A stretch of 64,000 bases of DNA from Nemertoderma westbladi (Eukaryota; Animalia; Xenacoelomorpha), in assembly GCA_032718475.1 (NCBI GenBank), contig JAUCBJ010008710.1, positions 1 through 64,000 of the forward strand. The letters run 5' to 3'. Under the pieces are notes generated by a model, which was not told the DNA's origin, made no database searches, and was given only the letters and a program-made list of their open reading frames with translations. Shown one piece after another: positions 12,164 to 64,000 of this stretch (its first letter is position 1; every line of letters begins with the position of its first letter). Made by a program: the position numbers and the translations under genes.

Positions 12164-14653
12164 AAACTTCTGGGGTTGTTACGTCGGCAGTCCTTGCCTA
12201 GCAGCAAACTTACCTATGTCCCTAAGGGTTGCGTCGTTCCGGGTTAACAAATGGTTTAGTTCTGCAGGGTTATTAAGTCTGGTCCTTTCCCGGTGGTTCC
12301 AACTTACCTGCTCCGCGTCGGTCCTTCTTTCCTTATAGTTTCGGGACTTCTGACGTCTCATTTCTTCCTCTTCATCGCTTGACTCGGTGTCAGTCCTTAG
12401 CGCTCGCGATGGTTTGCGCGCCGAGGCCCTGACCCAAGCATCTTGTATAAATTTCTCGGCCGAATTTTCGAAGTTGGGATTATGAATATTCGGGACAGGC
12501 GTCCTTACCTGAGGTCTATGTGGTATAGTCTCCTCCGATATGCGTACTCGTTGACTAGGCTGGACTTTATCTAACTCAGGCCTGCTGGGATTAGAATTAC
12601 TTCTTACCTGGGCTGCTTCCTTTAACCGTAGGTTGCTAAGCATGTCCGTTATAGGTTGGATGTGCGGCGATATAGCTTGCGCTAAACTAGCACTTAACTC
12701 ATCCCTCGTAATAAATTCCTGGCTAGGGTTCTGTTGTATAGTCGGCTCTATCTGAGTAATCCGCTGTCTCTCATATGATCCCTCTTCCGGTTTAACCCGG
12801 AAGTTCTCCGTCGAACTGGGTCGGCGCTCCGTCCGCGTATTCCAAACCCGCGGGTTCGGTTCGCCCAATACTCGTCCCGTCGGAGTTTCTCTAAACTCTC
12901 CATCGTCGTGTTCGGTGTGTAGTGGTGCGATGTTCTGATGCCGTGGATTCTGCGCGATAGGTGAAGCACTAATACCAACTGGCGTGCGATATGTAGAGAA
13001 CGGTTTAGCGATCCGTGTACTCGTAATAGCTGGACCGGGTATAGGAATTCTGGTCGTCGTCGACTCGCGTATAGTCGGAGTTCTCGCTTCCTGTTCGGCC
13101 TTCTGCAGTGCGAACAGTTCTCACAACTCAGTCCCTACACTCGCCCCACATTCTTCGATCATTCGCATCCCCTTCTCGGCGATTTCGTTCGCCTTCCTAG
13201 TCCGTTCTTCGCTCTCTAAACTTAATCTCGCACTTTCCAACTGCGCCAGTTTACGTTCTTCTTCCTCCCTTGCTCGTCTCGCTGCGCCCTCTTCTTCCAC
13301 ACGCGCCTTCTCTTCATACAATGCCCGTCGCTCCCTCTCGCGCTCAAGTTCGCGCTCCTTGCGCTCGCGTTCGAGTTGGAGTTCGCGTTCTTCGCGTTGG
13401 AGTTGGAGTTCGCGTTCTTCGCGTTGGAGTTGGAGTTCGCGTTCTTCGCGTTCGCGTTGGAGTTGGAGTTCGCGTTCTTCCTGTTCGCGTTCCGCTTGTT
13501 CACGCTTACCTTTCTCTTCCAACTCTCACAACTTTGCGTCTAACTTACGTGTGCGCTCGTGTTCCCGCTCGGCTTCCTTCCGTGCTTCCGATGCACGCAA
13601 AACTTCCGCCTGCTGTTCGTCTAGTCGGCGTCTTCTCTCCTCCGCCGAGTTGTGCGAAACAAGGGATCTAGCACATATAACCTTACCTCGCGCGTGACTA
13701 ACCTGGGAATCGCCGCTGTCTCTGGATGCGTCGTCGGGTGGAGTCAACGTCCTCTGTTGAATGTTCTCCGTCGTCGGTAGCACCTGACCCGGTACCACCA
13801 CTCCATTCTGCATCAGCCAGCTAGTAACTTCCCTCTGATAACGGCGCTCCTCTTTATCCTGGATCTCTTCTCGCTCCACTAAGTCTCTCAACTCTGCGTC
13901 ACTCACCTGAGTCGCCTGCGCTTGTGATGCCCATAGCAGCCAGTTCTCCGTCCTAATTCGTCGGAATCGCTCCGATAACTCGCGGTGCTCCAACAAGGCT
14001 GCTAAAACCCTGTCGTAAATCCTCGTCACCACGTCGCTCGACTGAGACTCTACTGCCTTCTTCGCTAGGACTGCAAGCTCCTCCGTCTGCTTGAATAACG
14101 CTGAGTTATATCCTCTTCTAATCTCTACTAACTCTATCCTCCCGATGTTCGCTGAGTCGGCTAACATTTTCCTTACCTTGTCCGCCGTCCGACTTATATG
14201 TCCGGCATGCGCGCGAAGTTTCTTCTTTATCGCGATATCAAGTTCTCTCTCGCTTACCTGACTCACACTTGGTGGACTTGAAGGATTATTTCGGGAACTA
14301 CGGGTACTTCTAACAGCCGTCGGGACCACGGCACTTACCATACCCACAGGTCTGGAAACCGGGCTCCGGGCTCTCGCTTCTGCTACACTACCCTCCCTAT
14401 CACTCACCTCTGTCCGGGTTGCTGTACAATCCTTCCTTACAGTAGCGGTAGGGGATCCTAATACTATTACCTGAGGCTGCTGTTCTTCCTCACTGGTCAC
14501 TGTCTCATCCTCCTGTTCACTTACGTCAGCGTCGCTCGCTGCGTCGTCATAGTCGGCATTGTCGTCAACAGTAATATTTACGCTATCGTCAGTCGGCGGT
14601 CCAGCCGCCGTCTCATAGCTGTCCTCTAGTGCCTCCTTGTCTGAGACACTCAT
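12164..14653 (-). pseudogene. N-terminal part of family A gag (acidic/coiled-coil extension), in frame with the polyprotein but broken by three stop codons
   Basis: ORFs 13526-14653, 13121-13522, 12179-12868 and 6335-12163 share one frame, separated by TGA (13526-8), TGA (13121-3) and TAA (12179-81). The paralog at 19972-21348 has CGA at the first site. Confidence 0.9.
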
Positions 14654-15766: not shown

Positions 15767-15777
15767 ACGTGCTTTAC
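15767..15777 (-). promoter_or_regulatory. Non-tRNA primer-binding site candidate of family A (GTAAAGCACGT)
   Basis: Directly abuts the 5' LTR end; lacks TGG; complementary to LTR positions 16724-16734 (10 Watson-Crick pairs plus 1 G-U). Confidence 0.7.
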
Positions 15778-17863
15778 TGTTAAACAAACTACCCCGGCCT
15801 AACCAATAAAGACACAAAACTGCTCTATTTATTAGACAGGGCAATCAGGAGCGTATTATTGCTAATGTGAGGGGCTGCTAAATACAAAACCGCTACTTAC
15901 CGTTAGATGGCGCTAACCTGCCGTCCGCTAATATGTTTTACTAATTTTCTACGGCTCCTGCTAATTTCTTGTTCCTTTCTCTACCAATTACTCGATAGAG
16001 AGCTAACTGTTCGAATATATGAGCCACGCGGGAATAACCAAAACAACAAACCCGAATCGGCTCCCTAAGCTGACTTAAAACGAGTGTGAGAGGTTTTACA
16101 CTCAGAGTATATTCTTACGCCTAATCTTACTGTTAAAGTACGCCAATGCCTACGTCTTTTCTAATCGCGAATACTGGGGGTTCCCTAACGGAATGTGTGA
16201 ATGCGAGAATATTTAAAATAATCAAAGTGGTACAGTGTTTATTAGGGCTAATACCTATAGTGGGACTAAACTTGTCTGCGGCTGGCTTTAGGCCAGCAAA
16301 TTACTAATGCGTTTTGCGTACTGAATACTGCTATCTAGCTTATTGCCCGCTAATTCAAATAACCGCTCAGCGTGAATAGTTTACGGTACTCTAATTATTA
16401 CCTTAGCTACTCTCCGCTATGCTGCGTACTAATTCTTAATTTTACTAATTAATTACAGTCACAAATATGTAACAGCCTAAAATACTGTATTACTTTGACC
16501 TAATCAGTAATTATTTACAGTAAACTAAGAGATAGAAATCAATCAAAGGGAAAAGAGCGCCTATCTATGCATTCGTAATCTTAGGCACACTTTAGTAACA
16601 CACCAATCAGCGTCAGCAATCACAGCTCGCAATGCGCGATTCACAATTGTACAATCCGCAATGCACGCAATTCGCAATTACACAGCACAATATAATAATT
16701 CGCAATACATGCAATTCGCAATTGTAAAGCACGCAGACCTCTCCCGGGTACATCTAGGCTTCCTAACTAACCCAATTCCTGCCCCCCTAATACTAAATAG
16801 AGACAAAACCTGGATCATCAGCCCCCTAATTACTGTACCAGCGAGCTGCCCCCACGCTACAATGCAAATTGCCCGACCGCAACGGTGACCCCCCGCCAGC
16901 GTTGCTCGCCTTTGAATCCTCCGCTCCCTTCGTCGCTAACCCCCCGATGTGCCCACCGCCCACTGGCGCCTTAGCCCTCCATTATGCTAATAGCTACCGT
17001 AGCGGCGCATGCAAATCACAAAGTCTGACAGTCTCAGAAATCCCTTAGGATTATTGCGCAGAAAGGAATCACATAGAACCATTAATCAAAAGGTAGAAAT
17101 CATAGTTCCAGTTGTAATTTGCAGTAATCGAAGGAATTAATTGAGAAACACAATCAAGAGTAATCGCACTAGCAAAGCATTTTGAGAAATTAATCGAAAA
17201 TAGCAAATTGCAGAAATACGCTAAAATATCCGTAAAAATGAATATAGACAGCTCAGCAAGTACAAGGTGATAGCAGATCATGTGAGGTGTCATGTGAGGC
17301 TCTACCGGCACACCGCCAATTTATAGGTGATCCGGATGGGGTGATGCAATAGGGTGACTCAATCGCTCTCCTATTGGCTCTCCAGTCCGTGCTAGCATTA
17401 GACCAACCTGGAAGCAGTTAGTCCAATAAGGAGGCCGGATTGTAGCCCTATTGCCTGCCCAAACCTCAAATTATTACCATATATGGTAATGGTTCACGTC
17501 CCTGGCTGCTGAGTGGCCAGGACAGCGTCCCTATATCTAGCCCTATCGATGCTAATATCAGCAAGCACAAAATCCAGGGTCCGAATAAACTCGCTACCCT
17601 GGAACTATCTACATATATCCTAATACAAAATTACGTAGGTAGGGCTACATACTATACAAAATGGATGGATTCAAATATATGGGTGTTTCGATTTCCCTAT
17701 CTAAATACTACTGCGTTATTATGCCTTATCTAAAATATTATGCTGCACAACGGACTAATATTACATACAGTATAACGGACTAATATTGTGTACAGTATAA
17801 CGGACTAATATATTATACTGCATAATGGCTAATAATGTGGATACAGCGCCATATACCGTAACA
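15778..17863 (-). repeat. 5' LTR of family A element
   Basis: Direct repeat of 588-2673, upstream of the gag start on the minus strand; TG...CA termini. Confidence 0.97.
17319..17377 (-). promoter_or_regulatory. Candidate Pol II promoter in family A LTR
   Basis: Minus strand CCAAT (17373-17377), AP-1-like TGAGTCA (17355-17361) and TATAAAT (17319-17325) in canonical order; motif inspection only. Confidence 0.45.
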
Positions 17864-19027: not shown

Positions 19028-21335
19028 TGTTTAACAGTAAAAACCACTTTGACTTACAGTACTGTACTACGTACAGTAAGAACCATTTTTTTTTATTTTT
19101 GCTGTTGCTTTGCAACAGTAAGAAACATTTGTTCACTAATCGCAGAATACAGTAATTTGTTGGGCCGTTAGGGTAAATTGTAAATTAGTAAGTTTTTGAA
19201 AATTTTAGCTAGGTTTGTGAGAATTCAGTTTCGGTCAAAATTGTTTTATAATAAAATCTAGAGTTTTTTTACCGCTTAATTATTTTATAAATATAATAAC
19301 ATAGCGAGACGGAGCTTCTGAGTTTGGGGTTTGTGTGGGCCTGCGGGTTCGGTTTGCAATCAGCGAAGGGCCTGAAACTTTGGACGCGGACGTGGACGTG
19401 GAATCTCACAGCAAACAAGGTTAGTTGTTCTGTTGGCACCATAGTATTTGTGAAAGCAGTAAAAAAATATCGGTTGTTTAACTGCGAAACTGAACTCAAT
19501 TTATTAGTTAGGATAGTTAGGTTTAGCCGGCCATGGTGTTTTGGATCGCTCAAGTTAGAGAGAGAGAGAGAGAGAGAGAGTCGCAACCCGAAGGTGTAGC
19601 CACACGCTAGTGGATACATAAAATATTTGAAATTAAAATTACGTCGATTAGAGCTATATATAAAAATTAGAAATATTTGGGTGGCAAATTCATTTTTGAA
19701 TATTTTGAATTAGATTCAGAAATTATTTTGTGTCATACCGGTATTTAAATGCTATATAATAGCTATAGAATACTATTTTTGTTTAAATATTGTATTGGTA
19801 TTTGCTATAACTACACCCTATTAAATTCACAATATTGCATTGCGAATTTATTTTGACATTTTGGACCAACCTATTATTTGACAAATAATTTAACCGTGTT
19901 TTCGATTAAATTATATATATATCTCGAATTTTTGCGAGATTTTAGCCGGAAGGCAAAACATTATTTAGACTATGAGTGTCTCAGACAAAGAGGCACTAGA
20001 GGACAGCAATGAGACGGTGGCTGGACCGCCGACTGACGATAGCGTTAATATTACTGTTGACGACAATGCCGACTATGACGACGCAGCGAGCGACGCTGAC
20101 GTAAGTGAACAGGAGGACGAGACAGTAACTAGTGAGGAAGAGCAAGAACACCAGGTAATAGTATTAGGATACCCTACCACTACTGTAAGGAAGGATTGTA
20201 CAGCAGCCCGACCAGAGGTGAGTGATAGGGAGGGTAGTGTAGCAGAAGCGAGAGCCCGGAGCCCGGTTTCCAGACCTGTGGGTATGGTAAGTGCCGTGGT
20301 CCCAGCGGCTATAAGGAGTACCCGTAGTTCCCGAAATAATCCTTCAAGTCCACCAAGTGTAAGTCAGGTAAGCGAGAGAGAACTAGACATCGCGATAAAG
20401 AAGAAACTTCGCGCGCATGCCGGACATATAACTCGGACGGCGGATAAGGTAAGGAAGATGTTAGCCGACTCAGCGAACATCGGAAGGGAAGGGTTAGTAG
20501 AGATTAGAAAAGGATACAACTCAGCATTATTCAAACAGAAGGAGGAGCTTGCAGTCCTAGCGAAGAGAGCAGTGGAGTCTCAGTCGAGCGACGTGGCGAC
20601 GAGGGTTTACGACAGGGTTTTAGCAGCCTTGTTAGAGCACCGCGCGTTATCGGAGCGATTTCGACGAGTTAGGACGGAGAACTGGTTGCTTTGGGCATCA
20701 CAAGCGCAGGCGACTCAGGTGAGTGACGCAGAGTCGAGAAACTTAGTGGAGCGGGAAGAAAACCAAGATAAAGAAGAGCGCCGGTATCAGAGGGAAGTTA
20801 CCAGCTGGCTGATGCAGAGTGGAGTGGTGGTACCGAGCCAGGTGCTACCAACGACGGACAACATCCAACAGAGAACGTTAACTCCACCCGACGACGCATC
20901 TAGAGACAGTGGCGATTCCCAGGTTAGTCACGCGCGAGGTAAAGTTATATGCGCTAGATCCCTCATTTCTCACAACTCGGCAGAGGAGAGAAGACGCCGA
21001 CTAGACGAACAGCAGGCGGAAGTTTTGCATGCATCGGAAGCACGGAAGGAAGCCGAGCGGGAACGGGAGCGCACACGTAAGTTAGACGCGAAGTTGCGAG
21101 AGTTGGAGAAAATAAGTAAGCGTGAGCAAGCAGAACGCAAGCGCAAGGAACACGAACTCCAACTTGAATGCGAACAGAAGGAATGCAAACTCCAACTTGA
21201 ACGCGAGCGCAAGGAACGCAAACTCCAACTTGAATGCGAACAGAAGGAACGCGAACTCCAACTCGAACGCGAGTGCAAGGAACGCGAACAAAAGGAATAC
21301 GAACTTCAACTCAAACACGAGCGTAAAGAACGAGT
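19028..21335 (+). mobile_element. Truncated, diverged paralog of family A (last 9 nt of LTR, 5' UTR, 5' gag)
   Basis: TGTTTAACA matches the family A LTR end; the following sequence is an inverted homolog of ~15500-13350. Confidence 0.9.
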
Positions 21336-27992: not shown

Positions 27993-29192
27993 TGTAAAAG
28001 CTTTTGTGGGATATAACTGGCCCTTTTGCTTCGCAATCCAGTTTCCCTCAATGCGCTCAAATACTCTAAAGAAAAACTCCCTAACTCAAAGGATGAAAGC
28101 TACCGGCTGATTGGCTGATTTGCCTAGCGATGGCCTCTTTGTTCTGTTCGATCAACCAACCAGAGCAAGGTCAACCAAGCAGAGTGATTCATCCTGTGTG
28201 TTGGCTAAGGGCTGCAAAAATCCGAATAATTCGGCATTTAGACATTCGTGGAATCTGTGGAATATGGAACTCTGCCAATGAGAGCTTTTCCTTTTTGTGT
28301 TGAAAGCTACCTGCAACAGCTCACAGGGTTCAGTGTATTGGTTTTTCCAGAGCCTAGAAACATCGGCTGTGGAATATTTCTGAATTATTCCAACATTAGA
28401 ACGTCTTTAATTATAAGATCACATAACTGTTACGGCAGGACCAGCACAGGACCGGCACGGTACAAGACACTAAGAACACATAACGGTACGGTACCTGCTG
28501 CTGTATTGCACATTATTTACTGCTATTTACTGTTTGTTATTAATTGTATCAGTGGTTTACATATTGTTATTTGGAGAATAACGATAAACGATCAGAAACC
28601 CCGATCTTCTTGATACACTAAGGTTAGAGAGACCGGTTACATATAGCAATTGCGGCTTATATTATCGTGGTTTGTAGTGAATTGAATGCTATTTTATAGG
28701 CCCTACAAATGTCGGTTGCTATTCTCTTTATATATGATTAAAATCAGTGACTATCGGCAATTCAGTGTGCAGCGGTGTGCAATAGTCTGTATGTGCTTGT
28801 CCGCGTAACAAAGCATCTCCTAAAGAATGCGCCTTATGTGTAACTTATAATCCATTCCGTTGTGTTTAGTGTAAGCCATAGCTCTGTTTATATAGATAGA
28901 GCGCCACGTACTAAAGGAACTGCTAATATTTCCCGAAAGTGAATGATATTTGTCAGGAATTATATTAACGATCAATCGAATAGTACGGTAGGCCTGCACC
29001 GCAAGCAAATTAAAGCATCCGAATCCAGTCTCCCGGGTATATCCAGCGGGTGAATGGTCGCGCATAGACTGGCTTCGGCTAATGTTGGATTTATTTGTGT
29101 CAAATACTTGTCATAGGCTAAAGTCGATTTATAACCTAGAAGACATATAGATTTGGCGGGTTAAACTGCCAAAGGTCTCAAAAGCGCGAACA
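27993..29192 (+). mobile_element. Solo LTR (1200 bp), family B-related, inserted in family C gag
   Basis: TGTAAAAG...GCGCGAACA termini; 5-bp TSD CTAGG at 27988-27992 and 29193-29197; homologous at both ends to 51488-59417. Confidence 0.93.
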
Positions 29193-30513: not shown

Positions 30514-30704
30514 TATTCTAACACTTCGTTTATCGCTAAGTATGCGATGTTGTAGAACAGTTCGTCATAAGTTTCGTACTCGGCTTGAACTACCCGAACG
30601 GTAATTCTAAATCGTCCCATGTTAGTACCCTGTACCTCAACTTCGATATGCCAGATTCCTGGCTCAACTTGGATTATATCAATAGGTGTGATCGATACTT
30701 CCAT
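30513..30704 (-). CDS. Small upstream ORF (63 aa) overlapping the gag start via TAATG
   Basis: ATG start, protein-like composition; its TAA shares one base with the gag ATG (GAA TAA TG). Confidence 0.45.
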   Translation of the reverse strand: MEVSITPIDIIQVEPGIWHIEVEVQGTNMGRFRITVRVVQAEYETYDELFYNIAYLAINEVLE

Positions 30705-31220: not shown

Positions 31221-32156
31221 TGTTCGCTTTTAGATTTTAACCTAACTAATGATCCCCATTTTACCTCGGTCCTAGTCCCGGTACCGTAGTGTCAGTGTCA
31301 GTCGACCCTGTTGCGTGTCCGTCCCACCCTTCCCAAACCCCGAAGAGATTGGTCATCAGGATAGCGGTATGGCTTAGCTAGGGGTCTGTCAGTTCATCGC
31401 AGGGTCCCCCAACCACCTAAGCTTTCCGAATCCTTTTCAGGCTCGTAGTCGCATCGGTAGCCGAGAAGCTGCTCCGAGTAGTCGGTAGGCCAGTAGATTC
31501 CAGTGCTCTGTCTTTCGACCCCGTTGCGTGTCCGTCCCACCCTTCCCGTCCTTACCTTACCCATCCGGTCATCAGGAAAGCGATACGGCTTGGCTAGTGG
31601 TCTGTCGGCTCGTTGTGAGTCCCAACTGTCACAGCTTTCCGAATCCTTTTGAGGCTCATACTAACGCCAGTCGTGGAACCCATGCCAGGAAGTCAGTCCT
31701 CGTCGAACTCTTCCCTCGTCCGGTCAGTCGATCCTTCGCAAGGCCCTGGCGCAGTCAGCAAGCTTTCCGAATTTTTTTCAGGCTTGTAATCGCTGCCGGT
31801 GGCCAGGGACCACTAAGGTCGCAAATCCCTGGCGCAATCAGCAAGCTTTCCTAATCCTTTTCAGGCTCATAATTGCTGCTGGTGGCCAGGAACTGCTAAG
31901 GGCAGTCCTTGTCCCCAGACCTAGCGGGTTACCAACTACTGAAGTAGAAGGAGGTTGTCTAGGCCTAAATAAGTATCAGGCAACCCTGTCACCTAAAGTA
32001 TCGCTTGATTTTGCCTCCCACCCTTGGCCCTTAAATATCTGATATGAGTCCCGTGCCCCTAAGTCGCCCCAATATTCGCCCATAAATCGCCCCCAGTCTA
32101 TTGAATATGCCCAAATTTTATGTTCCCGCACCCAGTACTGTTATTGGAATATAACA
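31221..32156 (-). repeat. Putative 5' LTR of family C with internal repeats
   Basis: Minus strand TGTTATA...GCGAACA termini upstream of gag; four copies of AGCTTTCCGAATCCTTTTCAGGCTC-like motif. No second LTR or TSD to confirm the boundaries. Confidence 0.45.
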
Positions 32157-43439: not shown

Positions 43440-46400
43440 GGCCCAATCCTTGCAGGTCTCCTTCAGGCCACCACAGAAATCATAGGCTATCTCAATCCCT
43501 TGTTAATGCTTTAACTTGTAGAAACATTCCTGCAATGTTGGAGGCGAAGGCGATATAATATTGCCGTGGTCGTAATAATATTCCCAACAAAGATTGGAGT
43601 AAGTTGGGTCCCGGCAACAGTTCTGAGTTTAGGGATTGTCCCATATAAAGGGCGGAGCCGTCGAATACTACCCGGACTTTGTTTGATTTACCGGGCTTAG
43701 GAACGTAATGATGTGTCAAGTAATACATTCTTTCCGTTATGGGTGTTTCCTCCGGCACTCACTCCACTTATCATTTGTCGATGAATTACTTTAGTTGCGT
43801 CTTATACATCTCTTTGGCTCGATCGTTAGATGATAAGCGCCAATGCAATTGTGTGATTCTCTTTTCAGCTAAAGGTCTGTTATTAACGAAGCTGGGTTTG
43901 CTTCGCCTAAAAGGCAGACCAATCTCGTAACGACCCTCCTCCTTTATATAGCATGTAGTTGTCACCTGGATTTGTTTAGCTCTCTCTTCCTCAACAGATA
44001 ACGCTTTGACGTAGGAATTAGGCTCTACAGCTACTTGAGTAAAGAAACGCACTGCATGTTCATCACGTATCTTATCATTATATCGCTCTACCACCTCATT
44101 GAGTTCGTCGTCATAAGTTGATATTCCTTTATTTTGACATATGATATTACACAAATTTACTTGGTCTGTCCACGTTTGATTCTCTGTGAGGAGTTCAATG
44201 GTATTATCCTTGTTGTACAGTGTTTGTATATCGTCATTGTCTGAGGAGCATGAAGTTTCCTCAGCTAGGATGTCCTCGTCTTTCACTCTCCCTTACCTGG
44301 TGGACTTGCCTACCTTTCAACCTCTCTTGCAAAGTCCTGTGGGAAGGTCCCACGAAATACCAACCTACTCTCGTTCTTCCCGCATAAGTTTGCAATGGTA
44401 GCGGTCGAGCATGCCGTTTATCAATAGTTCCGAGCGCTTTGTGCGCGTTCTGACCGAGCAGTATCTGTACCCCTGGGTAATCTGTTCTGAATCTAGGAAC
44501 GTTGTATTGCTGGATAAAATGGTCTTCATCCCAGTTGTAAGGCTCTACTTGGCTAGTAGCAAAGTTCTTTATTGCCACCATTTTAACTGATCTTACACTG
44601 TGCTCGCCTAGTTCATCTTGGGGAGTGGACAACGATCCTATGTAGAAATCCGTGGATACAGTAGATTTCCAAACCTGCATAATCCCGGAAAGGTTCAGTT
44701 TGGTTCGGAACCTTTGTTGACCAGCAAAGATATCTTCGGCCAGTTCTTTATCGATGAAGGTGCCTGTACTACCGGAATCAAGGAGGGCCTTCACTATAAG
44801 GCTCTTACCTTGTCCATGTACTCCAAGTTGCACCACTGGAAACTCTCTGATGCCAACAAATAGTGGCGATACCTTCCATGAAAGCTGTCGATCCGGAATG
44901 GATGGTTGGGGTTCCTCTCCATCCGTCGCCGCCTCATAAGTAAGGGCTCGGTATACGGCTGTGTTGATCATATAACAAGATTCATTTTCATAAGAAAACT
45001 CATCCGTATAGAATCCTTCCATCTCCGAACTATGGTCAGTGTCGTTCACATCACTGAACTGTACATGCAGTTCGGGTTCACTTACCTTGTCAAACTCAGT
45101 GTGCAGTACAATATGATGTTTCGCTCCACACTTAGCACACCTCACGTCTCAGTAACAGGTTCTCCTTTGATGTCCTCTCCTGAGCCAATTGTAACATAAC
45201 CTTTTATCCCAAGTGACACTGCGTCTGTCCTTCAATTCTTTCTTCAAGAAATCCTCTCACCCTCTCAAGCGATGTGGCCCTTCGCACAATAAACACTTAG
45301 GTTTGATGTTACTTACCTTAGCTTGCATTGTAGTTTGTACGCTAGCTCTTTCTTTAGGCTTCCTACCAGGAATTATCTTGGGAGACGTAGGGGGAATTTT
45401 TAACTGTTCTCCCTTGCCACTAGTTTGCACCTTGGGTTTACTTACGTCCTTACCTTTACTCGTGTAGTAAGATCTTTGCCACTATCTTTGTCATAAGACG
45501 TTTGACTCTCATAATCGGTATAACACACTGGTGTTACCTTTCTCCTAGTAATGGGTTTTTCACTTACCTTGGTTTCCAGAGTCTTCTTTCTAGACTGTTT
45601 TATTAGCTGTAATCTTACCTCTCCGTTTAAGAATGACATAAGGTCCGCCATGGTTGGATCTCTCTGTTGTTGGTCCATCAAGTAGAAAACCTTTTTGTCC
45701 TAGCAAGTACCTACTCCGCCCTTTGGCAAAGTTGATGCTACGGCTCCTACAACCATAGAACTCTGCTATTCATGAGACTTACCCAACCAGTCTAACTGTC
45801 TACAGATCTCCTGAATCTAATCGGAAAACTCTATTACCCCGCTGCTAAGAAACTTTCTGGGTGCCACTAATTTTGCATACAGATATCTAGCTAAGTTAGT
45901 CCTATTATCATACCTGATGTTAAGTGTATCCCAAACTTGTCTCAATCCGTCCGGATGTCCAATAAACTTTAACACCATTAACTTGGGAGGTCCTTCCAAG
46001 TACTCAATGAGGAATCGTAGTTTCTCTTCTCTGGATAGTACAGAGTTTTGTATGTTATCTTTGTAATATTCATTAAAAGGTAACCATTTCATCTCATCTC
46101 CATTAATCTTGACGACCTCTCCCACTTTTACAGCTTTACGGGCTTCCGTCCTAGCCATCTGACGTGTTAAACTTTCTTGAGCCATTGTACTATTTAATAT
46201 CAAAGTATCGGTATATAACTTTCTTGGATTATTATCAGATTAGTATGGGATATCATTATCGACAGATTTATTATTATTAATACTATTAATAGGGTTTACT
46301 ATAGGAGTTTCTACTTCACTAGCATTATAGATGCATGTAGGCTCCACACATTGCGCATGAGATACTTCAGGCCTAGAGGGTTGACACATTGTTACAGGGG

Positions 46401-46630
46401 GTGGTGGTATACCCATTTGTATATTGACTAATTTATTGCGTTTGAGAGCAATGTGTTGCTGTACTTCTTGCAACTCTATTTCACTATCTCGTACTGTTCC
46501 CTTTAACAATTGAACAGTGCCTTCCAAGTTGAGGAGCGAGCCTTGGTTTTTTCCAATTGCCCAAGCAGCTCCTCCATCTCCTGTCGCCCTTCCTCCATCC
46601 ACTCGGCTGTGGGTGCAGGTGCGGGAATTT
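43440..46630 (-). pseudogene. Degenerate BEL/Pao family B gag-protease-5' RT fragment
   Basis: 45817-46602 is homologous to 63100-63900 (MAQESLTRQMARTEAR); CAKCGAKHHIVLH knuckle, LLDSGST protease, THHYV...VRVVFDGSA...SLNSELLPGPNL RT start; many stops and frameshifts. Confidence 0.9.
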
Positions 46631-51487: not shown

Positions 51488-52534
51488 TGTAAAAGCTTCT
51501 GTGGGATATAACTGGCCCCTTTGCTTCGCAATCCAGTTTCCCCCCAGGCGCTGGAATACTCTAAAAAAGGTTCTCTAACTGTATATATATTCCCCTCGCC
51601 CGCAAGGTACCGTTACAGGTGTTTTAACGGACATAAAAGTCATTCTGCTATACAGTCCCGCTCTCAAAAAGCATTCCTTTGATCAAACATTGATCAAACT
51701 TTGATCAAACATTGATCAAAGTTTGATCAAAATGCGTCCATAGAATATCATTGAAAGTAGCATTGACATTGAAATGACATTGATGGCATATTGAAATGAC
51801 CTTGAAATCGACCCACCGAAATTCCAGACTTTCTGTCTCATATTGAAATGACATTGAAATGATTTCAAGGTAACAGTTTACATCTCTCAACTGCGGCAAG
51901 CCTTTGAACTCAGATTCCCGCCGAGAACTGGCTTTTGTTAATGGCCAAGTCGCTATGTGATTGACAGGGCAGTGGATCGAGCTTGCTTGACTTTGTGGAT
52001 GGACCGCGATTGGATTTACATGGCAGTGTTGTGGTAGTGTCCCAGACTGAGTCTTGTTCTTGTAGGGCCGGGCCTATTATTACACTAACAACTAGTTCAG
52101 AAAAACATCCTTTGGAATATTTTTAAATTATTGTTTTATTAGAAATTAGTTTCAATGCTCCTTAAATCAGAATCAAGGCCAAAGACCTCCATTGACATAG
52201 CAGCGCGATGGCTGCCGTTGCATTGCATTTGCTTATACAGTAATTGTGTAAATTCGGCAAGCTTCCTTCCTGCCCCTGTCTCTAATTATACTAATAAATG
52301 TAAATAAAGAAATAAATAAATCCAAGCGCCAGTGCCAGCGCACCCCCTAAAATACCTTCTAAAAATGTACGTAATTTAATTTTAATACTCTGATAAGGTA
52401 ATAATTATATTGAAAATCTCATTTGTTTTAAAGTAAACTATGTTATGTACATCATTAGTTACGTATTTTTTAATTCAGATTAACGTATTGTAATTATAAT
52501 TTTTTAAATATTAAAAATCAAATTGGGTTAGTAA

Positions 52535-53559
52535 TTAGCAAGTCGTTAGACTTGATTACTGTAAGAATTGTTTGCTGATTGACTGGCTGACTGACTGACT
52601 GACTGACTGACTGACTGACTGACTGACTGACTGACTGACCTACAGCCAAAACTACTCTAACGATTTTGATGAAATTTTCACAGCAGCTAGATACCGCGAT
52701 TCTAAGGTCCCTGGCATGATCGGCTACTCCGTCCATAGCCTCTGGGCTTGAAAAATAGAGATAAACGAAAAAACGCCATAGGCGCTATGGTAAAATAACA
52801 CCAATGACAGCTGGTGTCCTGATGAAAAATGGCTTATGTAATGCATTTCTACACAAAATGTTAGTAATAAATCGATGAGGTTGCCAAGATTATTGTACTT
52901 AGTACACCCATACTGTTTGTTTAGGCCCTACCAACCACTCTCTGCAAACAAACATCAACTGGTTGGTTTGCTATTCTATAGGGAGCCACCTAACAAGGAA
53001 GTACATACAGTGCCAACTTTATAATCATTCACTGGGTTAGCCGGCTATTACAGCCTCAGCTGAATAACTCTTCCCCCTGCTGAATGACTATTAGGTATAC
53101 AGTGTATCGGCTACATTATGCCAACATTAATACTGTGGAGGCTGTATGCTTATAAGGCGGAATGTTTACTCAGCCTGCTACTGATACTCTGTAAGGCTTA
53201 CACTAACATTATAGTTTGAAATATAAAAATAACTGCTTATTATCTGTATTGGGTTAATCACTGTGGCATTCAAAATGTTTTGTTAGGTGAATGACATTTA
53301 GTGGCTAAGATTATTCTCTGTCAGATTCCCTTCACACCATAGGCAAACATTGTTGAGGCTGAGGGAATTTACTTTAGTTTACTCTACTGAGTCATTCAGC
53401 TGAATGGATTTGAGCAATTGCCAAATTACAGAGTGGGATCTCTCTCTGACCATAGATAAATAACACTTCCCTTCTGAACAAAGGTAAACATTGTTGAGGG
53501 AACTTACCTTTGATTGACGACTTCCGACTTGCTTAATGGCGTCTTGACGCCGTCTCTAG
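52535..53559 (+). mobile_element. Non-autonomous Helitron/HINE-type element, unit 1
   Basis: 5' subTIR AGCAAGTCG with palindrome AAGTC-GTTA-GACTT, (CTGA)n tract, 3' subTIR CGACTTGCT, hairpin GGCGTC-TT-GACGCC, CTAG end. Confidence 0.8.
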
Positions 53560-55046
53560 TCAGGAACCGAGAGGTTCATTACTGTAAGAATTGTTGGCTG
53601 ATTGACTGGCTGACTGGCTAATCTATAGCCAAAACTACTCTAACGATTTTGATGAAATTTTCACAGCGGCTGGATACCGCGATTCTAAGGTCCCTGGTAT
53701 GTTCCGCTATTTCGTCCATGAGCCGTGGGCTCGAAAAATAGACATAAACGAAAAAACGCCATAGGCGCAATGGTAAAATAACACCAATAACAGCTGGTGT
53801 CGTGATGAAAAATGGCTTATGTAATGGATTTCTACACAAGGCTTAGTATAAATCGATGAGGTTGCCAAGATTATTGTACTCAGTACACCCATACTGTTTG
53901 TTTAGGCCCTGTCAAAGCAAATATAAACTGGTTGGTTTAGTTTGAAATCTATTATTGCCTCAGCTGAATAACTCTTCCCAATGCATTCTAGTTGAGTATC
54001 CAAGTTTCTCCCTCTGCTAATGTAAGCTGAATGACGGTTTAGTATGCAGTAGTGTGTTGGCTACATTAATGCCAACATTATTGCAAAATGTTTTATTGTT
54101 GGATTACTCTGTCAGTCTCCCCTTCAGAACATTGTATAGGGAATTTACTTTAGTTTACTCTACTGTGCCATTCAGCTGAATGGATTTGAGCGATTGCCAA
54201 GTTACAGAGTTGGATCATTCTCTGACCATAGGCAAAGACATCAAATCTTTTTAAAAAGATACTTTTTCCATGTTTTTTTTTCTGACCAAAAATTTCAAAA
54301 AAAAATTTTTGTAGCCAGTACTGCCAATCGATTCGCCATCAAAAATAACGCAAAAAATTTTTTTTGCAAAATTTTAAATTACTGTAAATTTTTGGCGACT
54401 GGGGGGGGGTCAATTTTTTTCGATCCGCTATAACTCCGGAACGCTTTGTCCAAATTCGATGGGGTTTTTATTTTTCAACTTAATTCGACGTCCTCTTTAG
54501 GCCTATCCATTTTTCGAAACCCCAAACAGCACCGTTCAAAAATTAATTTTTTCTAGTTCTAGAATTTTACAAATTTCAAAAAAGTTGCAGTATTTTATTA
54601 ATGCCTTTACGGAATTTGATAGCGTTTTTGATTTTTATATTAAACGCAATATCCTGAATCTCACTAGCCTAGTTTCGCGTCACCAATGCCAATACTTTAT
54701 ACTTTTTGAGGAAAATTTTTCTAGAATAATTTTTATTTAATTACATTTATCGCGATTTCTTATTACTGGTTGCACATGAATTGATGGAGTTTTCAATTTA
54801 TTAACTAAACACGATATCGCGCATCGCACCAGCGTGGTTTCGAAATTCCAAAACGAGGTCTTCACTAGTTGCATGTCGTTTTTGTTCTAGAATTGAGCAA
54901 CTAATAATTGATTGAATTTATTAATAATTATTGTATGAAATATGATTGTATTTTTACATAATGATTAGTTCTATATTTATTCTCGTTGTCTCTTTTATTT
55001 AAAATAAAAAGTCGGTTCCTTATCGGGCCGCTAGGCCCGTCACTAG
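53560..55046 (+). mobile_element. Non-autonomous Helitron/HINE-type element, unit 2
   Basis: 5' subTIR AGGAACCGA with palindrome GAACC-GAGA-GGTTC, 3' subTIR TCGGTTCCT, hairpin CGGGCC-GCTA-GGCCCG, CTAG end. Confidence 0.82.
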
Positions 55047-55085
55047 TTAGGAACCGAGAGGTTCATTACTGTAAGAATTGCTCGA

Positions 55086-55124
<39 letters not shown>

Positions 55125-57375
55125 TGACTGATCTACAGCCAAAACTACTCTAACGATTTTGATGAAATTTTCACAGCGGCTGGCTGACCTGATTCTAAGG
55201 TCCCTGGCATGATCGGCTACTCCGTCCATAGCCTCTGGGCTCGAAAAATAGAGATAAACGAAAAAACGCCATAGGCGCAATGGTAAAATAACACCAATGA
55301 CAGCTGGTGTCCTGATGAAAAATGGCTTATGTAATGCATTTCTACACAAGGCTTAGTAATAAATCGATGAGGTTGCCAAGATTATTATACTTAGTACACC
55401 CATACTGTTTGTTTAGGCCCTACCAACCACTCTCTGCAAAGCAAACATTAACTCGTTGGTTTAGTTTGAAATCTAGTATTGCCTCAGCTGAATAACTCTT
55501 CCCAATGCATTCTAGGGGAGTATAAAAGTTTCTCCCTCTGCTAATGTAAGCTGAATGACTTAAGTACACAGTGTGTTGGCTACATTAATGCCAACAATAT
55601 TGCAAAATGTTTTATTGTTGGATTACTCTCTGTCAGTCTCCCCTTCAGAACATTGTATAGGGAATTTACTTTAGTTTACTCTACTGTGCTATTCAGCTGA
55701 ATGGATTTGAGCGATTGCCAAGTTACAGAGTTGGATCATTCTCTGACCATAGGCAAAAGACATCAAATGTTTTTAAAAAGATACTTTTTCCATGTTTTTT
55801 TTTTCTGACCAAAAATTTCAAAAAAAAATTTTTCGTAGCCAGTACTGCCAATCGATTCGCCATCAAAAATAACGCAAAAAATTTTTTTTGCAAAATTTTA
55901 AATTACTGTAAATTTTTGGCGACTGGGGGGGTCAATTTTTTTCGATCCGCTATAACTCCGGAATGCTTTGTCCAAATTCGATGGGGTTTTTATTTTTCAA
56001 TTTAATTCGATGTCCTCTTTCAGCCTATCCATGTTTCGAAACCCCAAACAGCGCCGTTCAAAATTTAATTTTTTCTAGATTCTAGAATTTTACAAATTTC
56101 AAAAAAGTTGCGGTATTTTATTAACGCCTTTACAGAATTCGATAGCGATCAACTTAATTCGATGTCCTCTTTCAGCCTATCCATGTTTCGAAACCCCAAA
56201 CAGCGCCGTTCAAAAATTATTTTTTTCTAGTTCTAGAATTTTACAAATTTCAAAAAAGTTGCAGTATTTTCATTAACACCTTTATGGAATTCGATAGCGT
56301 TTTCGATTTTTATATTAAACGCAATATCCTGAATCTCACTAGCCTAGTTTCGCGTCACCAATGCCAAGACTTCATACTTTTTGAGGAAAATTTTTCTAGA
56401 ATAATTTTTATTTAATTACATTTATCGCGATTTCTTATTACTGGTTGCACATGAATTGATGGATTTTTCAATTTATTAACTAAACACGATATCGCGCATC
56501 GCACCAGCGTGGTTTCGAAATTCCAAAACGAGGTCTTCACCCGAATGGAGCCGAGTTGAGCCCAATCAAGCCGAGCAAGCCAGACTGAGCCGAGTCAAGC
56601 CCAATCGAGTCGAGTCGAGCCCAATAGAGCCGAGTTGAGCCCAATCAATCCTAGTCGAGCCCAATTGAGCGGGACCAAGCCAAATCGAGCCCAATCGTGC
56701 CAGACTGGGCCAATTTGAGCCAAATCGAGCCGAGTCAAGCCCAATCAATCCCAATCAATTGAGTCGAATCGAGCCCAATTGAGCCAAGTCGAGCCGGACC
56801 GAGCCGAGTCAAACCCAATCGAGCCGATTGAGCCGAATAAAGCTGAGTCGACTCAGACCGAGCCGAGCAGAACCCAATCGAGCCGAGTTGAGCCGTGTCA
56901 CGCCAAATTGAGCCGGACTGAGTCGAGTCGAGACCAATCAAGCCGAGTCGAGCCCAATCGAGCTGAGTCGAGCCGGACAGAACCGAGTTGAGCATAATCA
57001 AGCCGAGTCGAGCCAGACTGAGCCGAGTTAAGCCCAATCGAATCGAGTCAAGCTCAATAGAGCCGAGTCGAGCCCAATCAAGCCTATTTGAGCCCAATTG
57101 AGCCAAGTTGAGCCAAATCGAGCCGAGTCAACCCCAATCAATCCCAATCGAGCCGATTCGAGCCCAACCGAGCTGAGTCGAGACGAATCGAGCCGATTGA
57201 GCTGAGTCGAGTCGAGCCCAATCAAGCCGAGTCGAGCCCAATCGAGCCAAACCGAGCCGATCAAGCCAAGTCGAACTGAATCGGGCCCAATCATGCCAGA
57301 CCGAGCCGAGCTCGTTGTCTCTTTTATTTGAAATGAAAAGTCGGTTCCTTATCGGGCCGCTAGGCCCGTCACTAG
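55047..57375 (+). mobile_element. Non-autonomous Helitron/HINE-type element, unit 3
   Basis: Same termini as unit 2; (CTGG)n tract, ~150-bp internal duplication near 56000-56300, pentamer satellite; ends CTAG followed by T. Confidence 0.82.
56541..57311. repeat. Degenerate pentamer satellite (GAGCC/GAGTC/CAATC)n
   Basis: Continuous 5-bp periodicity over ~770 bp. Confidence 0.93.
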
Positions 57376-59417
57376 TACAGCAGATAATTGGTTTTACATG
57401 CTGGGGCGGCATAAGCTAAGAGCCATTACACATGCTATGCCATTACTTTGTTAGTGGTCTGTCGCTGTCGGCACCCCAAGCTAATAATATACAGCAAATA
57501 GCACTGAGACCGCTGACTCCTATGACATAATTTGTTGTGACTCGAATCAATTATTTCTCCTTACAAGGAGGCAACGTATTTCCCACTTGTGGCCAGCCAG
57601 AAGGCCACAATGTCAACTGATATAATAATACCAAGGGATATTCTTATATTACCCCCCCCCCCCCCCCCCCCCCCCCTTTAGAAAAATGCTTTTGTTTGAG
57701 AAAATTTGGAATGTGGATCTTTAATATATATAGGCCTATATATTATTTTTTTTCTCATTTCACGTGGAAAGTATTTCAGTCAGTATGCTTTCATATGGCC
57801 TCCCCCTCGGTACGCTAGTACCCCCCCCCCCCCCCCCCATTCTAATGTATTGTAGCCATCCACCCAACACATTGCGTAACTCAGAATTAAACTCCACACA
57901 GCCCCTACCCGCCCTTGCTTTCATTACCACCACACCGCCAAGTGGAGATTCAATTGCGGCTGTTATTTTCTGATAATCGCTGTAAATTATTATAACCTAG
58001 GCTTTAACTGGTTTAAATAACGGCTATAGCTTACAAACCTATGGTATGATATGGAAGTGGTGTCCTATGTGCTCTGCAGACATCCTACAGAGCACATGGA
58101 GCATTACACACACAGAGAGCAGAGAGAGAGAGAGAGAGAGAGAGTTAGGGCTGCTTGATTGACACACAGCTCAGTGGGAGTCTAGACTTTGAAGTGCAGC
58201 GCCTTTGGTAGAACTCAATGGCAGGATTTATAAGCCTGATACATTTCAATATTTGATCAAACTTTGATCAATGTTTGATCAAAGTTTGATCAATGTTTGA
58301 TCAAAGGAATGCTTTTTGAGAGCGGGACTGTATACGTGTTTTAGCGGACATGGTAAGGCAAAAAACCCGCAATACGGCAAATACTTTTACACAGCTTAGC
58401 CGTGATGATTCAGATTACGACATCTAACAGCTGGTTGCTTAAATGGAAACAGCCATTGGACGCATGGTTCTTTGTTTGGCTTCAGCCAATCAGAGCGATT
58501 CTCTCTGTCGATGTGGAGCTTTGAGCCGATCATACTGGGATTGTTCAGTCTTACAGTTTTTTACTGATACTTTGTTGTTATTGCTGTCTAAGCCAGAAAC
58601 AACGGCTCTAGAAAGAAACATTAGTAGGCTTAAGATTATAGAGCGTATGACTGTTATCGGTTCATAACAACTCACATATCGGTCCATATCAGTGCATATC
58701 ATATCTTAACCTACCGTCTTAATGTTTTTACTGTTGTCATATCTTATATCAGTGGATTGAATATTATTTGGAGAACATTTATAAAGAACCCAAATTTCCC
58801 AATTTTCTTGATACACTACAGGTTAGAGAGGCGGGTTATATATATAGCGATTGCGACTTGTATTATTGTGGTGTGTATTGAATTTAATGCTATTTGATAA
58901 GCCCTACATGAGTACGTTGCTATTCTCTTTATATATGATAAAATTCATTGACGGTCGGCAAATTAGTGAGCAGTGTTGTGTGTTACCGGTAGTGTGCATG
59001 ATTGTGGCTGATAACTAAGCATTTCCTAAAGAATGCGCCTCATACGTGAATCATAAGCCTTACCGACTTACCGTTGTGATTAGTATAAGTCATATCTCTG
59101 TTTACTTAGATAGAGCGCCACGTCCAAAAGGAACTGTTAATATTTCCCGAAAGTGAATAATATTAGTCAGAAATTAATTATTAACGATCAATCGAATAAT
59201 ACAATACAATAAGCTTCACTGCAATAATAATCTAAGCCGACAGAATCCAGTCTCCCGGGATTATCCAGCGGGTGAATGGACGCGCACTAGGCTGGCTTCT
59301 GCTAATGTTGTGTTTATAGGTATTAAATATTTGTCTTCTTCTAAAGTATATTTATAAACCAAAAGACATATAAATTTTGGCAGGTTAAACTGCTAAAGGT
59401 CTTCAAAAGCGCGTACA

Positions 59418-59428
59418 ATAACAGTCAT
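59418..59428 (+). promoter_or_regulatory. Non-tRNA primer-binding site candidate of family B (ATAACAGTCAT)
   Basis: Directly abuts the LTR end; exact reverse complement of ATGACTGTTAT at 58647-58657 inside the same LTR. Confidence 0.72.
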
Positions 59429-61678
59429 TGACTTTATTGCAGTAAGCAATAAAGTTGAAAGTACCAGTCAACCGGTAAACCTGAACCGGTACTTCTGTAG
59501 GTCAGTAGGCCCAACTGCCAGAACCGGTACTGCCGTAGGTCCGTAGGTCCAACTGCCAGAACCGGTACTTCTGTAGGTCTGTAGGCCCAACTGTCCTAAC
59601 CGGTACTTCCAGTATAAGTACATTAGTATTATTTCGATTGTGATCTATTGTATATTGTAGGCTGCCAGGGGAATAGGGATTGATCACCCCTCATTCTTTT
59701 GTATAGTTTACTTATTTCTGTCAGTTTTATTTACATGTAAGTTAATATTGAGCTGAAGACGTGTAAGTCTGCTCAGATTGTTCAGATAATTGTAGGCGGA
59801 CTGTTGTCAGATTGTTGTTGGGTTTGGAGAGATTACGGCGTGTGTAGAGTTTGTCTGATAGAGTGCCGTTAGTAAGTTGGGGCAGCCATATGCTGCAAGG
59901 TCAATCCCCTCTTAAAGAATAAGTCGTACTACCGTGTTAGAACGCATACTAACTAACTATTTCAGAATCTGCATATACTGTAGTTTATTTAGGCTTGATC
60001 GTAGTCTGCCAGCGTTTTAGCCTGTGTTTGTTTGTGTGGTCTGTTCAGGTACCGTAATAGTTATTACTCAGATATTTTGTAGGCTGGATTGTTGTCTAGC
60101 TATTATTAGGTCTGAAGAGATTGCTGTGTGTGTAGAGTTTGTCTGATAAAGCTCCGTTAGTAAGTTGGGGCAGCCATAGCGGTAAGGTCAATCCCCTCTT
60201 AAAGAATAAGTCGTACTACCGTGTTAGAACGCATACTAACTAACTATTTCAGAATCTACACGTATGGTAGTTTATTTAGGCTTGGTGGTAGTCTGCCAGC
60301 GTTTTGGTTTGTATTTGTTTGAGTATTCTGTACGGGTAGCGTAATATTTATTATTCAGAGTTTATGCGATTATTCGCAACATTCATGTCCCCAAGTTTAT
60401 TCCTACAGTAATTGTGTTTGTTACACATACCGTTATAGTTAAATTAACCCCGGTACTACACGGGCTGCTTGGCGTAGGTAAAGACTGGTGACTTTGTGCT
60501 TCGGTCACTCCAGCAGATGCCGTGGTTCTTTTAACTGTTCAAGTATATTTAACTACTGATTATTTGTTATACCAGTACTTGTACCTAATTTAGGGTTTAG
60601 TGTACAGTGCTTTCCGAAGTAATTAGTGTGTAGGCAGTATATTTGTGTTGTAAAGTGGTTAATAGGCACGCTGGATCTGGTAGTCCGCGGTAATTAACTT
60701 CTAGGTAGGAACAATCCGTGATACATAACGTAGTACCTATAGCGATACGGTTATAGGTCGTCAGGCGGTGGTATTTTCCTATCTGGACAACGCAGTGTAT
60801 TTACTACTACTTATTATTTTCAAATACCATAGTACCCTGTCCATTGTAATAACCAGAATTCTAACCCTTTGTTAGGCTGGTTTGTAGACTTCCTGTAAAA
60901 TTACCCTAAAAAAAATTCGTACGTAATATTTTGTTGTGTTTAATTAGAGAATTAATCTCACCCATATCGTAAGTAATTTGTAGTATTAAGTAACTTAGGT
61001 AAATTAGAATTATCAGTTTTAGTGTCAAATAAATAGCACTTCACTGAGAGCGCACAGCTTCTGTGTAGTGACCCCAGAAATAATAACATTTATTTCAAAT
61101 ATTGACAAAACCCTTTTAAACGGGTATATAAATATTATAAATCAACTCAAACGATTTATAAATAGTAGGCCTGCCATACAACAACTAGGTCTCAATATCA
61201 GTTGGATTGCTGCTTAAATAACGGTAATAAAGTAAGTTAAAGTAACCAAGTAACCCTAAAATATTCAGAAATTCAATTATTCTAAAATAATTGACATACC
61301 GGTATTTACCATAGGCTTATTATATTTATTTCTATAAATTTGAGCTGAAATCATACCGGTATTCTGTAATTAATTCTAGTAATAATTATACTTATATATA
61401 CTATAAGTGTCAGCTGTATACCGGTATTCACGATAGGCCTATTATATATTTATATATATTTGTGCTAAAATTATATACCGGTACTCTGTGACAAATCTAG
61501 TCTGTAATAATACTTATATATATATTATAAGCATACCGGTATTCTAATATATTATATATATATCACGCTACACTGAGTAGCAGTATCGGTAATTAATTAT
61601 TAGGCTAACAGTGATACTGAATTACTAGACTTGCTTTAACTGTAATATAGCAGTAGGCATTCGACTGTACAATCAAAC

Positions 61679-64000
61679 ATGGCTGATACAAGGCAAACTC
61701 TGTCAGATAGTCTCCTAGAAACAACAGCCTGTTTCTCAGATCAAAGTGTAGAGAATCCCAGACCGAGGTCTGAAACCCCTCATACTGTAAGAAGGGCAAC
61801 CCCTGCAGTGGTTGTGTCAGAACCTAGGTTGGTAGAAAAGATTTCGCAATTTGCGAAGTTAGTGAAGCGCCGTTGGTCTGCCATAGGCACTCGGGCCCAA
61901 GTCAAGCGGGATCAAGAAGAAGCTATAAAACAGCAGCAACCTCCTAGCCAAGAACCTAGTTCTCAGCGGCCCGATAGCTCCAGTAGTTCGGATACTGTTG
62001 AGCGGACGCCCGAACGCGGAGCGAAGATGGCGGATACGGTTTATGATGAGCGGCCAACCTATGAAGAATCAACCGACGCCACTTCTTCTCAAGTGGAAAG
62101 TGAGGTGGAAAGCGAAGTGGAAAGTGAGGTGGAAAGCGAAGTGGAAAGCGAGGTGGAAAGCGAAGTGGAAAGCGAGGTGGAAAGCGAAGTGGAAAGCGAA
62201 TTAACATCAGCAGAGAAGCCGCGAACTAGAGACGCTATCGACATTTATTTGTCCGACTATCAGCGATTCCTATGAGACGAAGAGTTGAGGAGACGGCTGT
62301 CTGGACTTTCCCCTAATAGTGAAGGAACCAAGCTTGTGTTGGACTCAATCGATGCCGAAATGTTAGCTGCAAACCAAGCTGAATGTGATGAAAAACTCCG
62401 CCTCATTAGAGTCCGAGAAGAACAAGTAAAGAAAGAACGGATAGAGAAAAGAAGGGTGGCAGCAGCAGCGGCGGCAGAAGCAGAAGCCGAAAGAAAAGCA
62501 GCGGCGGCAGAAGCAGAAGCCGAAAGAAAAGCAGCAGTGGCAGAAGCAGAACGGAGAGCTTCTGAGGAGACTATCCAACTGGAGTTGGAAAATCTGCAAG
62601 AGACGCAAGACAGTATAAATAAACAGTTTACTGCTAATCAAATGCAGATGATGAGAAAATCTACTCCCAAGCGCCAGGGATACACATCCTCGGAGGAAGG
62701 CGAGACCACCGATCCTGAAGGCGGAGGAAATAGATCTCGTCTAAGCAGGCGTAGAAAAACATCTCACCATCATAAACTGCCTGATTTGCCCCCAGCTGTC
62801 AGAAGACAACTAGCTAGCACAGACTTAGGTAATACAGAACCCACAGAACAAATTATTCAGGTCACAAGACTCCCTACAATAGTTGATGAGCCTGAAATAA
62901 TTAGGCCTGTCGTTCCCAAAGTCACTCCTGTGCTAGAGACCCCTGTACTTCCAGAGCTTAACTATAAGTTCCCTTTACACAGTACTACACTGCCTGTACC
63001 CGGTGGAACAGTCCATGCAAACACCCCTGTCCTGAGCATTGAGAGAGGAATCAAAGATTTGTCTCCCGTCGTCCCGCGTCAGCCCGCTACAATGTTGGCG
63101 ACTCCCGCTTCGGCGGTTGAGTGGGTAGAGGAGGGACGGCGGGGGATGAACCTCCTGCTCGGACAGATGCAGGAGACTGTCCACCAGCTTAAGGGAACAG
63201 TAAGGGAAGGTAGGGCAGAGTTGCAAGAAGTGCAGCAAAGTATCGCGCTGGAACGCGACAAATTAGTCAATATACAAAAGGGCATACCAATACCCCCTGT
63301 AACATTGTATCAACCTGTTAGGTCTGAAGTATTACATGCGCAAGGTGTGGAGCCTACACGCATCTATACTGCTAGTGAAGTAGAAACCCCTATAGCAAAC
63401 CCTATTAAGGGTGATTATAGACCTGTTATTAATGATATTCCTTATAGACCTGATAATGATCCGAGAAATTTATATACCGATAATTCGATATTAAATAACA
63501 CGATGGCCCAAGAAAGCTTTACGCGTCAGATGGCTAGAACAGAAGCCCGCCAAGCGGTCAAAGTGGGAGAGATCGTCAAATTCAATGGAGATGAGATGAA
63601 ATGGTTACCTTTCAACGAATATTACAAAGATAGCATACAGAACTCTGTACTATCTAACGGAGAGAAACTTAGATTCCTCATCAAGTGCTTGGAAGGACCT
63701 CCCAAGTTAATGGCGTTAAAGTTTATTGGACATCCAGATGGATTAAGACAAGTTTGGGATACATTAAACATCAGGTATGGTAACAAGGATAACATAGCTA
63801 AGTATTTGTATGCAAAATTAGTAGCCCCCCGACACTTCCTTAGTAGCGGGATTATAGAGTTTTCCGATGAAATTCAGGAAATCTGTAGACAATTGGACTG
63901 GTTAGGTAAGTCTCATGAATATCAGAGTTCCATGGTTATTGGAGCCGTAGTCTCTACTTTACCAAAGGGTGGAGTATGTACGCGCTGGGACAAGAAAGTG
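61679..64000 (+). CDS. Family B Gag (partial; one in-frame TGA at 62273-62275)
   Basis: The frame continues after the TGA (DEELRRRLSG...) and stays in frame with the DUF1759-like region KFNGDEMKWLPFNEYY...EKLRFL at ~63580; (ESEV)n repeat at ~62093-62200. Confidence 0.8.

Follow-up and report, generated by a model that had tools for sequence, protein, structure and literature searches.

Nested BEL/Pao elements in the window

The window, by which we mean the whole 64,000-nt stretch of Nemertoderma westbladi DNA analyzed here, contains nested BEL/Pao LTR retrotransposons (Pfam PF03564, PF05380 and PF18701). The parts of two families, A and B, are given below by position, strand and content.

51488..51652, plus strand: family B 5′ LTR, piece 1, starting TGTAAAAG and matching the start of the solo LTR
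51653..58330, no strand assigned: presumed Tc1/mariner-like DNA element within the B LTR, with ~80-bp terminal inverted repeats and TA on both sides
58333..59417, plus strand: family B 5′ LTR, piece 2, ending CGTACA; 78% identical to the solo LTR over 58719-59420, weaker upstream
58647..58657, plus strand: predicted self-primer 11-mer inside the B LTR, exact complement of 59418-59428, ending AT before C
59418..59428, plus strand: predicted non-tRNA primer binding site (PBS) of family B, the first 11 post-LTR bases, no TGG
59431..59455, plus strand: 10-bp hairpin with exact arms, burying AATAAA (59448-59453)
59456..61678, plus strand: long non-coding leader of family B with tandem duplications, 80% identical to a second copy at 23171-24341 (minus)
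61679..64000, plus strand: family B gag, leaving the window; ORFs, PF03564 (DUF1759) at E 2.4e-12
27993..29192, plus strand: solo LTR of family B flanked by a CTAGG target duplication, found by alignment to the B LTR
43447..46518, minus strand: decayed B-like gag-pol piece, 83% identical to 63176-63999, source of the B-type reverse transcriptase (RT) fragment
15778..17863, minus strand: family A 5′ LTR, 2086 bp, one mismatch to the 3′ LTR at 588-2673; CCAAC duplication
15767..15777, minus strand: predicted non-tRNA PBS of family A, 10 Watson-Crick pairs plus one G-U
6335..12178, minus strand: family A BEL/Pao polyprotein frame, 1947 aa (PF03564, PF05380, PF17921, PF18701)
19037..19047, plus strand: PBS in another copy of family A, identical to A over its first 5 nt and different over the next 6

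The family B 5′ LTR totals ~1250 bp (1248 in our scripts), the length originally predicted, when counted as 51488-59417 minus the inserted element that separates its halves. Its start was placed by a 94-column match to the start of the solo LTR (score 137, against a maximum of 34 in 200 shuffles). The 5′ flank, CCATC, is unlike the post-LTR bases, which leaves the LTR without a target duplication, and its insertion breaks the pol of another BEL element at 51487; on these two grounds the possibility that it is an unrelated solo insertion was excluded. It runs via a 2.2-kb leader into a BEL/Pao gag, which is interrupted by an in-frame stop at 62273-62275. The DNA element within it shows an 83-bp inverted match of 100% identity, flanks included, and we presume from its end motifs that it is Tc1/mariner-like; it is 6.7 kb long, rich in internal repeats, carries a 10-bp satellite at 56540-57310 and is without a long ORF. 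No Rfam match at E≤1 was found over 58300-61700, and no tRNA genes were found within the window.

Family A, a young minus-strand element, has a leader (15480-15766, minus) that repeats a TACTG..TGCGTAC-type hairpin unit several times. In the second family A copy (18990-19047) the LTR is cut to ~45 bp, so the target of its PBS is lost, and the PBS is altered at positions 6-11. A third BEL family, broken (24352-31250, minus), carries the solo B LTR within gag and adjoins a truncated B leader; no 5′ LTR was located for it.

Assignment of A and B to BEL/Pao rests on several features. The Pao-type gag domain DUF1759 occurs in both (E 3.8e-9 in A), and a PF05380 pol with the integrase last is present in A, while B's own pol lies beyond 64000; the RT piece of the B-like copy is 43% identical to A. 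Target duplications are short and the LTRs run TG..CA (CTAGG for the B solo LTR, CCAAC for A). The named best protein matches of A come from marine invertebrates at 38-41% identity, and a search for a chromodomain, as in Ty3/gypsy chromoviruses, gave no hit in A's polyprotein, which has Pao-type domains instead.

Complementarity between the LTR and the primer binding site

Directly behind the family B LTR comes ATAACAGTCAT (59418-59428), which matches the reverse complement of ATGACTGTTAT (58647-58657) exactly; as originally predicted, this perfect pairing begins at the first post-LTR base and ends at 11 nt. The LTR end at 59417 also holds, since the alignment to the solo LTR (78% over 709 columns, CTAGG on both sides) stops there, and beyond 59418 the contigs from a single DNA run diverge (2 records), in line with this boundary. 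Both ends being fixed by the solo LTR at 51488 and 59417, we excluded an arrangement in which the 11-mers are the terminal inverted repeats (TGTTAT..ATAACA) of a 766-bp LTR. The homologous site in the solo LTR (28423-28433) reads ATAACTGTTAC and is likewise uninterrupted. By composition, 0.0008 matches of this kind were expected in B, and a scan that accepted offsets 0-5 as well as spliced forms found 11 nt in 2 of 400 shuffles. The post-LTR sequence of neither family has the TGG of a tRNA-type PBS. Among 40 of the 213 variants from sequencing contigs over 58335-59900, none fell in either 11-mer, an uninformative result.

The corresponding 11-mer of family A, which had been described as perfect, proved to be 10 Watson-Crick pairs plus one G-U (target 16733-16724 plus G at 16734, minus strand), with 0.002 such matches expected. 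A spliced primer was sought in family A and none was found, the best candidates reaching 9 nt with GC donors. A strong acceptor in the A LTR at 16525 (minus) precedes TTTAC, the second-exon start of the related elements L002, L026 and L035; a search for a matching donor found none. The A and B LTRs, otherwise dissimilar, have a CCAAT..GAGAGCGATT motif in common (17377, minus, and 58486).

A perfect 10-bp hairpin had been proposed to follow the PBS in both families. In B it is exact (59431-59455), and 59429-59470 folds at -12.3 kcal/mol (z -3.2); that of A, with a z of -3.5, is 9 bp with a G-U. As a shared property it did not extend further, as folding of the 45 nt that follow the PBS gave a comparable structure in 0 of 8 relatives (z +1.3 to -1.0). 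The AATAAA inside the B hairpin lies just past the 5′ LTR, where the hairpin may block early polyadenylation.

Intron-split complements in related elements

Relatives were retrieved with an alignment of A's RT-RNase H and 25 of 120 listed homologs, giving 15 loci from genome contigs and 79 from metagenome contigs (best 80 of 500 confirmed), to which 12 further regions were added; a search of viral contigs found no relative. Eight loci (L002, L003, L005, L007, L008, L009, L011 and L014) are BEL/Pao elements inside bacterial MAG records, several of them whole with LTRs and flanks, and most likely reflect host contamination of those bins. The set used for testing comprised 12 related BEL/Pao elements whose 5′ LTR end was fixed independently by a second LTR copy (in L070 this copy runs to the end of the contig and L075 backs it, although the 5′ LTR of L075 itself is truncated where its contig begins). 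Ends that were not clean kept L014, L060, L068 and L081 out of this bounded set, and the TGG elements L118 and L119 also lie outside it.

In 8 of the 12 bounded relatives (L003, L005, L007, L020, L063, L070, L075 and L083), representing 6 families, a complement of 10-15 nt is present in the LTR and split by a GTRAG..YAG intron, with 3-10 nt upstream and 4-10 nt downstream of the junction. Among the other four, L008 has 11 contiguous nt, L011 has 8 nt, and the TGG elements L082 and L115 have 4 nt; outside the bounded set, no LTR-PBS complement was found in L014. When no splice rule was applied, the longest post-LTR complement was 6-8 nt, and in 8 of the 10 relatives that lack TGG it started at a YAG acceptor (two of the 8 tie with another site; YAG frequency is 2-3%), and it is the upstream exon ending at a GTRAG donor that brings those 8 to 10-15 nt. 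Of the 8 spliced relatives, only 5 had GT..AG as their top two-part solution without the rule, because chance two-part solutions are many.

Counting A and B, at least 10 nt of complement was present in 11 of 14 bounded elements, compared with 0 of 178 swaps of LTR and PBS between families, and 0-2 of 400 shuffles reached the match of each of the 11 positives. Among these BEL/Pao relatives the match frequency lay above both the shuffle and the swap nulls. In line with the suggestion that the feature is kept as pairing and not as letters, it recurs with different sequences in many related families and is absent from both tested tRNA-type BEL elements. Compensatory change is seen between L003 (CAC|GT, PBS GTG) and L005 (TAA|GT, PBS TTA), in which two exon-end bases differ, as do the two matching PBS bases, with conserved flanks; crossing the LTR of one with the PBS of the other abolishes the match at the junction.

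Looser scans, for which only an LTR start or upstream region was available and the donor consensus was imposed by the search, gave spliced matches of 10-15 nt in 6 of 8 loci and 13 of 44 regions, many of the latter without an LTR and some repeating a family. Contiguous matches were found in L039, L046, L072, L081 and L094, and one in L047 that is probably chance. These loci are not significant one by one, because shuffle maxima in such open-ended scans (7-14) reach 10-14 in many of them. L094 holds the longest contiguous LTR-PBS complement seen, 18 nt (989-1006 with 2007-2024), at an LTR end that is not independently fixed. We tabulated 27 elements chosen as hits (20 spliced, 7 contiguous), with introns of 71-1022 nt and upstream parts of 3-10 nt. 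Their modal length is 11 nt (15 of 27), the length of the Tf1 primer; 19 of the 27 end in AC and 4 in AT, and 19 are then followed by C. The pyrimidine-purine step that had been taken as compatible with an initiator occurs at -1/+1 in only 9 of the 27, which weakens that argument.

On a quick 57-row tree the contiguous forms are scattered, a distribution that fits repeated intron loss, and A and the B-like RT form long basal branches. A clean loss of the intron could not be demonstrated from L039 versus L042, whose LTRs are too divergent. A single origin of the self-complementary elements was neither supported nor rejected (p-AU 0.176, 18 rows). The tRNA-primed (TGG) group of L082, L049, L092 and L089 shares an unresolved basal fork with the self-complementary elements; its position could mean either that this group reverted or that self-priming arose a second time.

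Candidate self-priming, its alternatives and known systems

Because a PBS position without a tRNA signature pairs exactly with the same LTR, we consider it probable, judging from sequence, that family B primes reverse transcription with its own RNA, that a primer built by splicing serves the same role in most of its relatives, and that A and B lack the intron. The transcript would start at or upstream of the 11-mer and fold back, allowing the 11-mer to pair with the PBS, and RT/RNase H would likely cut behind the ...AY that closes the paired stretch to leave a 3′-OH, as in Tf1; the visible sign of such a putative cleavage is the conserved AY end followed by C. Plus-strand synthesis would then copy the primer into the PBS, so that 11-mer and PBS would stay matched while drifting. 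In the intron-bearing relatives, host splicing would assemble the primer, and this is likely the ancestral or common state in the clade. Families A and B are most likely intron-less forms, which could have arisen by reverse transcription of RNA that was spliced in its 3′ LTR too. The model leaves the survival of a strong intron in the 3′ LTR copy unaccounted for. The self-priming originally proposed for A and B is well supported by the lack of TGG, the complement at the PBS and its recurrence among families; the intron split present in most relatives was not visible to that proposal. We lean, with some reserve, towards a broader reading in which the spliceosome joins a 3-10-nt first exon to the next one to form a self-primer of ~11 nt across a large animal BEL/Pao group, with repeated intron loss yielding Tf1-like forms such as A and B.

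Folding predictions place conditions on this model. For RNA that starts at the target, the mean predicted duplex probability is 0.67 in B and ~0.85 in A. The B duplex needs an RNA start within a few bases of 58647, its probability being 0.13 from 58640 and 0 from 58620, and folding a further 200 bases lowers it to 0.16. The loops are 946 nt in A and 760 nt in B, versus 44-243 nt in the spliced relatives. In neither A nor B does a TATA-like site precede the target by 30 nt, and the only TATAAA of family A is ~590 nt upstream of its target.

The long loops of A and B would be easier to reconcile with an own-sequence primer that acts in trans or comes from the other end, whereby a short LTR-only transcript (possibly spliced) made from a 5′, 3′ or solo LTR, or the repeat at the RNA 3′ end, is annealed and cut. 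This arrangement, which we hold to be unlikely, draws further support from AATAAA, which comes straight after the primer end in L003 and L005 and sits downstream in most hits, and from a conserved TATATAT shared by B (58930) and the solo LTR (28729): being downstream of the target, it would assign the 11-mer to U3, which only the 3′ end of the RNA contains. Against it, folding of RNA that begins at the target predicts a cis duplex, and B and the solo LTR have in common a CCAAT 161 nt upstream of the target; moreover, priming from a spliced 3′ copy should cost the progeny the intron, which 8 of 10 non-TGG relatives retain. It is more doubtful still that B itself splices, from a weak donor within the 11-mer (ATGACT|GTTATC, 58653) to an acceptor at 58821 or 59383 (AG|GTTA), for a 10-nt primer and a shorter loop. 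Both junctions would restore 10 nt of pairing at offset 1, the acceptor at 58821 falls within a block conserved in the solo LTR, and a 6+5 split is common among relatives; however, this donor does not follow GTRAG, a primer ending in TA and not AC or AT would result, and no GT-AG joint was among those listed for one presumed RNA run (contigs only).

A host RNA such as a half tRNA cut in the anticodon arm might instead be the primer, with the LTR complement serving as a regulatory fold that hides the PBS. We presume a loose resemblance of the A and B targets to anticodon arms, a point in favor of this explanation. Half-tRNA priming does exist in some Ty1/copia groups, according to the available text of one account (PMC6317226). 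A host primer is nevertheless very improbable here, since the PBSs vary by family and follow their own splice junction, double compensatory changes included, and tRNA-type elements are without the LTR complement. A chance match, aided by the TGTTA/TAACA motif typical of LTR ends, can be given next to no weight: 6 of 2318 ACA sites in the window do have an 11-nt complement within 2.5 kb upstream, and single loci of the open-ended scans are within the shuffle range, but the position in A and B was set beforehand by the LTR end, both families match, and at the level of the clade chance is refuted by the comparison with swapped LTRs and PBSs. Self-priming from the element's own RNA therefore remains our preferred reading.

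The primers described for LTR elements in the available text of PMC6317226 are the whole tRNA, the half tRNA and the self-primer, the last for Tf1/sushi, Tcn1 and TAR elements. We found no report of self-priming or of an intron-split primer in BEL/Pao within the literature covered, which included the available text of PMC3601003, PMC8220671 and PMC6238403 (subscription journals and Repbase Reports lay outside this scope); the terms PBS and tRNA do not occur in the available text of PMC554778 and PMC3118150. If true, self-priming in BEL/Pao would bring the number of superfamilies with this mode to three and would explain missing PBS calls in these elements. A primer made by splicing would, if true, be a fourth kind of LTR priming and a new host gate on retrotransposition, tying replication to the splicing of a cap-proximal micro-exon, and would let these elements escape tRNA-fragment silencing; the split-primer model predicts exact splice junctions.

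Among known systems, the tRNA-primed BEL/Pao elements (L082, L089, L115, L118 and L119) belong to the same superfamily and have their PBS 0-4 nt past the LTR end; unlike A and B, they have TGG sites, and the self-match of L082 and L115 is only 4 nt. The fungal GalEa copia elements, with their "conserved hairpin site", and bivalve TRIMs likewise lack a tRNA PBS and have a post-LTR hairpin, but the available text of PMC6934838 describes no LTR complement, whereas here the complement is conserved and the hairpin is confined to A and B. In plant TAR elements (Houba, Osr-1) of Ty1/copia and in Tcn1 chromoviruses, self-priming was, as here, predicted from LTR-PBS complementarity (PMC6317226); these belong to other superfamilies and hosts, and the available text describes no intron-split primer for them. 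The closest precedent for self-priming by a complement in the element's own LTR is Tf1 (PMC7175516). In Tf1 and Tf2 of Schizosaccharomyces pombe, in Tj1 and in the Tf1/sushi group the PBS complements the element's own LTR over 11 nt, and an RNase H cut has been proposed to free the primer, as we propose likewise (PMC7175516, PMC4600332, PMC5341516, as far as their available text goes). Unlike Tf1/sushi, which is Ty3/gypsy, families A and B are BEL/Pao and the B loop spans 760 nt; the Tf1 primer starts the transcript, whereas a start at the 11-mer is only predicted for B; and a spliceosomal intron interrupts the predicted primer of most relatives, an arrangement that the available Tf1/sushi texts do not describe. 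As we read it, the family B feature works like Tf1 self-priming, outside the Tf1/sushi group.
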